15,180 nt of DNA from IMG/VR virus record IMGVR_UViG_2563366825_000027, positions 1 to 15,180 of that record; one strand, 5' to 3'. Numbering within the stretch: the stretch's first letter is position 1; each line of letters begins with the position of its first letter. The stretch is from a virus. Taxonomy: Duplodnaviria > Heunggongvirae > Uroviricota > Caudoviricetes. Of the stretch, positions 12,282 to 13,066 are shown piece after piece. The position numbers and the translations under genes were made by a program. Under the pieces are notes generated by a model. It was not told the origin of the DNA. It did not search any database and worked only from the letters and a program-made list of their open reading frames with translations.

Positions 12282-12530
12282 ATGAAAGGTGCAAGAGATA
12301 TCAGTCCCTTGGGAATTAGGATTCCAGACTATTTAAAGAAACGCATTCAGCAGGAAGCGGATAAAAACGGCAGATCAATGAACTCAGAGATTGTGCTTAT
12401 CCTTCAAAAACATGTTGATAATCTTGATGGCCCTCGCTCACTTGAAGGATTCGCTAACCAAGAAGCTGACAAATTCAAAGAGGCGCTGCTTGAGACGCTA
12501 AAGACCATGTATGGTAAGGATGAAAAATAA
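12282..12530 (+). CDS. mnt: Mnt-like ribbon-helix-helix repressor
   Basis: Start at ATG 12282 (SD AGGAGG 12272-12277), 82 aa, the same length as P22 Mnt; the N-terminus ARD..P..IRIP, NGRSMNSEI and the C-terminus TLKTMYGK match recalled P22 Mnt (TLKDLYKK). Confidence 0.75.
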   Translation: MKGARDISPLGIRIPDYLKKRIQQEADKNGRSMNSEIVLILQKHVDNLDGPRSLEGFANQEADKFKEALLETLKTMYGKDEK

Positions 12531-13066
12531 TGCTGCACACAATTCATTTCTTATGCCCCGTTAACACTGCCACTGTTGGGCAACTTCAGAACCACTGTCT
12601 CACCGCATTATCTCAAGGCGCAACTGAATTAAATATCCATATATCAAGTCAGGGAGGGGAAACTGCCGCTGGCTTTACTGCGTATAACTTTCTTAAGTCA
12701 CTCCCTGTTACCGTTAGAACTCACAACATAAGCAATGTTGAATCCATAGCTAATATCGTTTTCCTGGCTGGCTCAGAACGTTTCGCAAACCCATTATCAA
12801 GATTCCTGTTACATCCTCTATTATGGGTCTTTGCCACCCCAGCCGCCGACCATGCCAGATTGAGAGAGTACGGGAAATGCCTCGATAACGATCTTGATCG
12901 CTTCGTTGAGACGTTCAATATCGACATCGGAACCCATATTAGGTGGGCATCCCTGATAGCAGACTCGACCATTTTGGATGCTAACAAGGCTCTTGAGCAT
13001 GGCATAATTAATTCCATAAAAACTGCAAGGCTGGTATCCAATCAGGCAAACTGGTGGGTTGTTTGA
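12530..13066 (+). CDS. ClpP/crotonase-fold protein, putative serine protease, translationally coupled to mnt
   Basis: 178 aa; its ATG overlaps the mnt-like stop (TAATG at 12528-12532); SD AAGGA upstream. Motif spacing aligns with ClpP: NIHISSQGGETAAG (ClpP INSPGG region), a Ser in SNVESIANIVFLAGS (ClpP active-site Ser region), a His in RFLLHPL (ClpP MIHQP). This is motif-level recall, not a search. Confidence 0.55.
   Translation: MLHTIHFLCPVNTATVGQLQNHCLTALSQGATELNIHISSQGGETAAGFTAYNFLKSLPVTVRTHNISNVESIANIVFLAGSERFANPLSRFLLHPLLWVFATPAADHARLREYGKCLDNDLDRFVETFNIDIGTHIRWASLIADSTILDANKALEHGIINSIKTARLVSNQANWWVV

Follow-up and report, generated by a model that had tools for sequence, protein, structure and literature searches.

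A ClpP-fold protein encoded on a mobile accessory cassette of enterobacterial temperate phages, probably of the PpClpP1 type and found here directly behind mnt

Why would a temperate phage place a protease gene on the very stop codon of a repressor gene? The question is raised by IMG/VR virus record IMGVR_UViG_2563366825_000027 (Caudoviricetes), of which positions 1 to 15,180 were analyzed here (the whole 15,180-nucleotide stretch is called the window). An initial annotation of the window had described a ClpP-like protease gene coupled to a gene for a Mnt-type repressor, a pairing that it did not recognize, and had suggested that the protease is made in the lysogen. We therefore consider what kind of protein the gene encodes, how it came to lie behind mnt, and what it might do there. 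The two genes are:

12530..13066, plus strand: truncated ClpP-family peptidase gene, 178 amino acids (RefSeq WP_000903308.1)
12282..12530, plus strand: Mnt-like ribbon-helix-helix repressor gene, 82 amino acids, with an AGGAGG Shine-Dalgarno motif 5' of it

The overlap is as first described: the TAA stop of the Mnt-like gene (12528-12530) and the ATG of the protease gene (12530-12532) have one base in common, giving TAATG, and an AAGGA Shine-Dalgarno-like motif lies 9 nucleotides 5' of this ATG. The 82-amino-acid protein matches the Pfam family Arc (E 6e-8), carries the RefSeq label 'Arc family DNA-binding protein', and is a real Mnt homologue because it aligns with P22 Mnt at 32.5% identity over amino acids 2-81 (E 5.7e-9). 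DNA identical to that of the locus is present in Escherichia phages PhiR12_1/4/5 and in the chromosome of E. coli NCTC9112. The protease open reading frame (ORF) is a genuine gene rather than a chance ORF, since its homologues, which come from many genera and share 31-100% identity with it, all keep Ser72 and His95.

The 178-amino-acid product is a ClpP-fold protein. It matches Pfam CLP_protease (PF00574; MEROPS S14-like) with E 1.6e-11 and 44.9 bits against a cutoff of 20.2, and a single-chain AlphaFold2 model built from 20 homologues reached a mean pLDDT of 91.2. Foldseek matched this model with a probability of 1.00 to solved ClpPs at TM scores of 0.72-0.90, with canonical ClpPs at 0.72-0.80 and E. 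coli ClpP at about 0.74. These results bear out the ClpP-fold landmarks that had been read from the sequence. The best NCBIfam ClpP models scored 18-40 bits against cutoffs of 228-361, that is, below the equivalog or subfamily level. The top match in the PDB was 9uxt_A (TM 0.90, rmsd 2.1 Å), and a sequence search of solved structures likewise returned 9UXT with E 2.3e-35 over residues 3-175, all other ClpPs being at 1e-7 or worse.

9UXT is the ClpP1 protein of Pseudomonas plecoglossicida (PpClpP1), published in February 2026 (PMC12900304). PpClpP1 is N-terminally truncated and has a Ser-His-Pro 'triad' in which Ser and His are essential and the third residue is dispensable (PMC12900304). Its homotetradecamer has an axial pore of 42.7 Å, and its peptidase activity is low; it does not bind ClpX and assembles with canonical ClpP into a stable heterotetradecamer that is more active with ClpX (PMC12900304). 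The authors treat it as a housekeeping paralogue and drug target and never mention phages (PMC12900304).

We aligned the phage protein with E. coli ClpP (sequence verified against PDB 3MT6) and with family members. Its ISSQGG stretch (residues 38-43) aligns with the INSPGG of E. coli ClpP, and the catalytic Ser97 and His122 correspond to Ser72 and His95, which are 23 residues apart instead of 25 and are invariant in 26/26 family sequences. The Ser and His of the initial annotation thus stood at ClpP-like spacing; the catalytic Asp was missing. At the position of Asp171 the phage protein has Ser146, and the family has S, A, P or E; the neighboring Asp145 is not conserved. The protein starts at about residue 25 of mature E. 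coli ClpP and so is without some 24 N-terminal residues, which form the gating, ClpX-contacting axial loops. For the ClpX/ClpA IGF/LGF docking pocket of E. coli ClpP, which we take to consist of Y60, Y62, F82, I90, M92, F112, L114, and L189, the aligned residues are N35, H37, S57, H65, I67, F85, N87, and K164, so that seven of the eight are replaced and the counterpart of F112 alone is kept.

Other features are shared by the family and absent from canonical ClpP. A Thr-His-Asn motif (residues 64-66) stands family-wide just before the helix of the catalytic Ser, and relative to E. coli ClpP the protein has a 12-residue C-terminal extension with an aromatic tail (174-178), NWWVV here and RWWVL, YWWV or HWTV elsewhere. 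The tail, which follows the pattern [N/R/Y/H]-W-[W/Y/S/T]-V and counts with T64-H65-N66, C23, E113, and D121 among the family invariants, is a strand in the predicted model; one might speculate that it fills the vacant ATPase-docking pocket. Since the axial loops and the Asp171 equivalent are absent and most of the docking pocket is replaced, the protein is not a canonical ClpP. In the alignment it lacks several defining features of canonical ATP-dependent ClpP and has those of PpClpP1, and we therefore read the ORF product as a noncanonical ClpP-family serine peptidase subunit of the PpClpP1 type, N-terminally truncated and Asp-less, and not as a standard ClpP. This kind of protein is already known: a solved and characterized homologue exists, and RefSeq names the gene routinely.

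The same losses could mean that the gene is a decayed, inactive ClpP remnant which is carried along with mnt and has no function, and the missing Asp, N-terminal loops, and docking pocket are what such a remnant would show. However, Ser72, His95, and 20 or more further positions are invariant across homologues of 31-100% identity and the length is kept at 178-190 amino acids, and PpClpP1, which has the same losses, is an active assembled protease (PMC12900304). We consider decay very improbable. Even less credible is a misplaced ClpP-type head-maturation (prohead) protease. The gene does match PHROG 94 'head maturation protease' with E 1.6e-20, and one phage record annotates it in this way, but it scores 49.7 bits against a cutoff of 120 with the NCBIfam model Clp_rel_HeadMat (NF045542). 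Moreover, it lies on the strand opposite to the structural genes and far from the portal and capsid genes, a sister prophage encodes a separate S49 head protease, and homologues also occur in nonphage chromosomal settings. Score, position, and strand led us to reject this assignment, in agreement with the initial annotation, which had placed the gene outside any head-maturation module.

We next considered the surroundings of the gene. The following features lie in and beside its module:

11000..13100, no strand assigned: low-GC accessory module (GC 0.39-0.49), inserted between tail genes K and L
11054..11968, minus strand: antirepressor gene ant, 304 amino acids, with Bro-N and P22AR_C domains
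11970..12036, plus strand: sar antisense RNA, opposite the arc-ant junction (Rfam RF00262)
12031..12171, minus strand: Arc-like repressor gene, 46 amino acids (Pfam Arc, E 5.2e-13; RefSeq 'YlcI/YnfO family protein')
12172..12281, no strand assigned: divergent arc-mnt control region with candidate Arc/Mnt operators
13099..13112, minus strand: terminator-like hairpin and T run directly after tail gene L, at the right edge of the low-GC module

The flanking lambdoid tail genes K (10262-10999) and L (13123-13827) have a GC content of about 0.6. The module is a complete P22-type immI (ant, sar RNA, arc, and divergent mnt), given the domains of ant, the sar RNA, the Arc and Mnt homologues, and the repeated operator-like sites. 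The sar RNA scored 69.4 bits against a gathering score of 43 (E 9e-14, Rfam) and is equipped with a promoter-like site of its own (11934-11962) and with a hairpin terminator followed by a T run (12001-12032). It marks a full P22-type immI region despite the location in a lambdoid tail operon. In the control region the sequence CTACAC(C/T)GTG occurs four times within 12182-12270, at spacings of 21, 36, and 18 nucleotides, and one copy belongs to a 13-bp stretch (12243-12255, CTACACTGTGTAG) that is perfectly palindromic. A Pant-like promoter on the minus strand (TTGACT-16-TAGTAT, 12231..12204) overlaps two of the four repeats. The repeats are candidate Arc/Mnt operators and differ from the operators of P22.

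Comparison with P22 indicated how the protease gene came to lie here. In the P22 record mnt is followed by orf59a, the annotated mnt terminator, and then sieA with its own promoter; as the initial annotation had said, no protease is found next to mnt. In three P22-like IMG/VR contigs (L111, L121, and L137) the homology to P22 runs through mnt, ends 25 nucleotides before the mnt end, and resumes 15 nucleotides before the mnt stop, from where it extends across orf59a as far as the terminator, inclusive, with 98-99% of positions identical. The gap of about 0.86 kb (3974-4833 in L111; likewise in L121 and L137) contains the ClpP-like gene, and in all three contigs a repeat of the last 15 nucleotides of mnt directly follows the cassette. 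Because P22 homology breaks and resumes around this gap, the gene is a self-contained cassette that has entered the mnt transcription unit, and in the lineage of the window the insertion took place at the 3' end of mnt within the P22-type immI module. The position 5' of sequence matching the mnt terminator of P22 is the best support for cotranscription with mnt, which on these alignments we regard as plausible; so is the expression in the lysogen that had been proposed at the outset, since the relatives carry the gene inside the mnt-orf59a unit. L111 has unrelated sequence in place of the sieA region. Downstream of the cassette some contigs also have a sieA-like gene, which makes the cassette an addition to sieA and not just a substitute for it.

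We scanned IMG/VR and a set of genomes with one genome per species; each scan gave 80 loci. The closest homologues were all from Enterobacterales except for one in Chromobacterium. The gene follows mnt in immI, beside the ejection-protein genes, in P22-like phages of Pectobacterium (79% identity) and Providencia (65%) and in E. coli phage phiv205-1. Elsewhere it is found by itself, with the lysis cassette on one side and the terminase genes on the other (prophages of Leclercia, 73%; Serratia, 71%; Klebsiella, 57%), separates the N gene from the erf/ssb genes (Proteus), or is located inside or adjoining tail gene clusters (Pantoea and Chromobacterium). The prophage relatives are thus single genes at about four kinds of site, with flanking genes on the opposite strand in nearly every look-up. 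Consensus scans gave no clear plus-strand promoter or terminator for the stand-alone homologues of the Leclercia, Serratia, and Proteus prophages, and reading the regions 5' of the stand-alone homologues by eye brought out AT-rich -10-like elements only.

Genome-scan loci (39-48% identity) came mostly from Massilia and the Pseudomonas putida group, and also from P. aeruginosa PA7. PpClpP1-type genes were present in nearly every sampled Massilia species and in many putida-group pseudomonads, in nonphage neighborhoods (e.g., L047, L049, and L067); sampled chromosomal neighbors encode an aldo-keto reductase, an MFS transporter, and an alpha-amylase. As genes of this type span chromosomal and prophage settings, the published 'ClpP1' family also has a large phage-borne branch. 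In a neighbor-joining tree the phage-borne clade stands apart from the chromosomal clade, which includes PpClpP1. Within the phage clade, Mnt-linked members interleave with members at the lysis-terminase site, from which we conclude that the gene has moved between slots. An exhaustive HMMER search of 1.84 billion cluster representatives gave 515 clusters with E ≤1e-10, of which 8 reached E ≤1e-30. The insertion of about 0.86 kb relative to P22, the approximately four kinds of site, and the GC content of 0.39-0.49 between flanks of about 0.6 are the behavior of a 'moron', and the ClpP-like gene is a mobile accessory cassette of enterobacterial temperate phages. Our literature searches found no paper on the phage-borne clade, on its behavior as an accessory gene, or on its insertion into the mnt operon; one candidate, PMC11495030, turned out to be irrelevant.

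Is the protease then a dedicated part of the immI switch, which degrades Ant, Arc or Mnt and thereby sharpens the maintenance circuit? Its tight coupling to mnt is kept in phages of E. coli, Pectobacterium (79%), and Providencia (65%), and a Mnt-like gene directly 5' together with a divergent Arc gene was present at 33/33 IMG/VR loci of at least 79% identity. The co-occurrence with mnt that the initial annotation had proposed to examine therefore holds at these loci and in the Providencia phage, but it does not extend further: none of about 45 IMG/VR loci at ≤73% identity had a Mnt or other ribbon-helix-helix gene nearby, and 0/80 genome-scan loci had a ribbon-helix-helix gene nearby, which led us to reject an obligate Mnt-protease pair. 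No ribbon-helix-helix gene and no ant gene lies near the relatives of 68-73% identity, near any of the more distant phage-borne relatives, or near the chromosomal ones. The pairing itself was less unfamiliar than first thought, as RefSeq routinely annotates 'Arc family DNA-binding protein' next to 'ATP-dependent Clp protease proteolytic subunit', with no function attached.

The E. coli genomes speak to the same point. The gene is present in about 125/5426 complete E. coli genomes (an estimate from an evenly spaced listing of matches), including the ExPEC strains S88 and CE10, and among the matches listed an Arc-family gene lies 5' of it in nearly all cases. In these genomes mosaic joints fall inside mnt at nucleotides 168-209 (window 12449-12490), at the border of the DNA-binding and C-terminal halves. 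As homology often starts inside mnt, the 3' half of mnt and the protease gene appear to travel together while the operator-recognition half is swapped. Proteases of at least 98% identity lie beside different antirepressor families (Ant, Bro-N, and P22AR) and behind different Mnt DNA-binding halves. Because the same protease travels with such varied partners, a dedicated antirepressor role is disfavored; control of the antirepressor by the protease is unlikely, and we give the dedicated switch component as a whole only a small chance.

Another explanation is that the protein is an autonomous antiphage or superinfection-exclusion protease, a lysogen-expressed open barrel which would attack incoming phages directly, by degrading their unfolded ejection proteins or their replication initiators, for example, and would not involve host ClpP. 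The gene occupies accessory slots that are probably expressed in the lysogen, the region 3' of mnt in P22 holds the exclusion gene sieA, the gene is antisense to lytic genes, and some relatives adjoin a sieA-like gene, a DUF4145 protein gene or other cargo. Such slots are weak evidence, however, and no sensor or partner gene is conserved across contexts. The models of PADLOC-DB v2 gave zero matches for the protease, Mnt, Arc, a paralogue of 52% identity, and three neighboring cargo proteins, and we rejected an assignment to a defense system for the protease, its partners, and the neighboring cargo. The low intrinsic activity of the homologue PpClpP1 (PMC12900304) also argues against an autonomous protease. 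We regard this explanation as unlikely, though it is compatible with the accessory-subunit model described below.

In two other prophages different same-strand cargo lies 5' of the ClpP-like gene (L179 2766-3458 and L161 3374-3922): one is a DUF4145 protein, the other a 182-amino-acid protein that has no family match and contains an R-x4-H-like motif (RNKRSH). Plus-strand ORFs 5' of the gene in other prophages were considered as partners and rejected; most are spurious, and the rest encode the DUF4145 protein, the 182-amino-acid protein, and a P2 GpU tail protein. The neighbors of the prophage relatives yielded no partner gene conserved across contexts.

In P22, mnt is expressed in the lysogen, where its product represses Pant. 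With the TAATG coupling, this suggests that the protease is made in the lysogen as well: its transcription would start at the mnt promoter and its translation would accompany that of Mnt, for as long as Mnt silences the antirepressor. Its heptameric rings, by homology to PpClpP1, would form an ungated, wide-pore barrel that is weakly active alone and unable to recruit ClpX or ClpA itself. A heptamer of this kind could stack on a heptamer of host ClpP to give a mixed tetradecamer with a changed ClpXP output, which in Pseudomonas is increased, so that Clp-dependent proteolysis would be reprogrammed in the lysogen. The prophage might gain in lysogen fitness, in the stability of lysogeny or by interference with incoming phages that have Clp-substrate proteins. 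This combined model, in which the lysogen expresses an accessory ClpP subunit and host Clp proteolysis is altered by it, is the reading that we tentatively prefer, and we put its chances somewhat short of even.

Several points weigh against it. For hetero-assembly with E. coli ClpP the model extrapolates from a Pseudomonas protein of 40% identity, a member of a separate chromosomal clade, and the third residue of the triad is Pro in that protein and Ser in the phage protein. A simple consensus scan brought no plus-strand mnt promoter to threshold, and a consensus scan found no plus-strand terminator 3' of the protease gene. Finally, constitutive production of an ungated protease could do harm if the enzyme were more than weakly active.

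ClpXP and ClpAP govern phage- and stress-relevant switches such as lambda O, the Mu repressor, LexA fragments, and RpoS, and a prophage that supplied the lysogen with a ClpP subunit of its own would act directly on both proteases. It is possible, if rather doubtful, that temperate phages of Enterobacterales use lysogeny promoters, in the window that of mnt, to express a private ClpP isoform whose heptamer docks on host ClpP and retunes ClpXP and ClpAP in the lysogen. If so, the phage would encode a 'half-barrel' that changes which proteins are degraded, or how fast, and the prophage would have a new way to control a central host protease. The lysogen might then be immune to superinfecting phages that have Clp substrates among their replication or regulatory proteins, or the stability of lysogeny might be altered. 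The structure and biochemistry of PpClpP1 (2026) make the hypothesis immediately testable, and the large phage-borne clade casts a different light on the origin and role of the PpClpP1-type protein.

Several other genes of the window, all on the minus strand, are worth recording. Tail gene L is immediately preceded by an OmpC-like porin gene (14017-15180; Pfam Porin_1, E 2e-139). As the porin abuts L, we considered that the window might be a deleted prophage remnant; this was rejected, because in strain JNEC-KY203 the porin gene lies between intact tail genes M and L and thus adds a second accessory insertion to this tail operon. The porin-L junction is present in about 104 complete E. coli genomes, and a phage-borne porin could change receptor availability. 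Downstream of the tail fiber genes, 1545-2816 encodes a 424-amino-acid protein with a YadA-like membrane anchor (trimeric autotransporter), which is reminiscent of the prophage-borne Eib proteins. The tail fiber gene at 3894-5393 has collagen-like repeats (Pfam Collagen, three stretches) and adjoins a gene for a DUF4376 protein (3299-3871). The ORF at 981-1451 (157 amino acids) had no Pfam match.

How, then, does the phage protein compare with known systems? Its closest counterpart is PpClpP1 (40% identity, E 2.3e-35, TM 0.90), which at 183 amino acids is in the same length class and shares the N-terminal truncation, the Ser-His pair with a nonacidic third residue, the THN motif, and the Trp-containing C-terminal tail. 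In contrast to the phage protein, which is phage-borne, coupled to mnt, and found in a host with a single ClpP, the PpClpP1 type sits in ordinary chromosomal neighborhoods of Pseudomonas and Massilia and forms a separate clade. E. coli ClpP (PDB 1TYF/3MT6) shares the fold (TM about 0.74, 22% identity), the ISSQGG/INSPGG loop, and the Ser and His in register, whereas its axial loops, Asp171, and pocket residues Y60, Y62, F82, I90, M92, L114, and L189 are not kept. The ClpP-type prohead proteases (PHROG 94, NF045542) are likewise phage-encoded ClpP-fold domains, but the phage protein scores under their family cutoff, has the wrong location and strand, and is not fused to a scaffold or capsid protein.

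The immI region of P22 has the same order of ant, sar RNA, arc, and divergent mnt and also carries accessory genes 3' of mnt. It differs in having no protease, where here a ClpP-like cassette follows mnt, and in lying next to the tailspike gene rather than inside a lambdoid tail operon. With the auxiliary ClpPs (P. aeruginosa ClpP2, Listeria ClpP1, and M. tuberculosis ClpP1P2) the phage protein shares the principle of a weak or inactive second ClpP that stacks on the main ClpP, and the Listeria ClpP1/2 heterocomplex was among the Foldseek matches (TM 0.80). Unlike the phage protein, these are chromosomal paralogues with full-length or nearly full-length N-termini. None of these isoforms is known to us as a phage accessory gene, and our literature searches likewise returned none. 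The concept of a second ClpP that works in mixed barrels is discussed in the PpClpP1 paper (PMC12900304).

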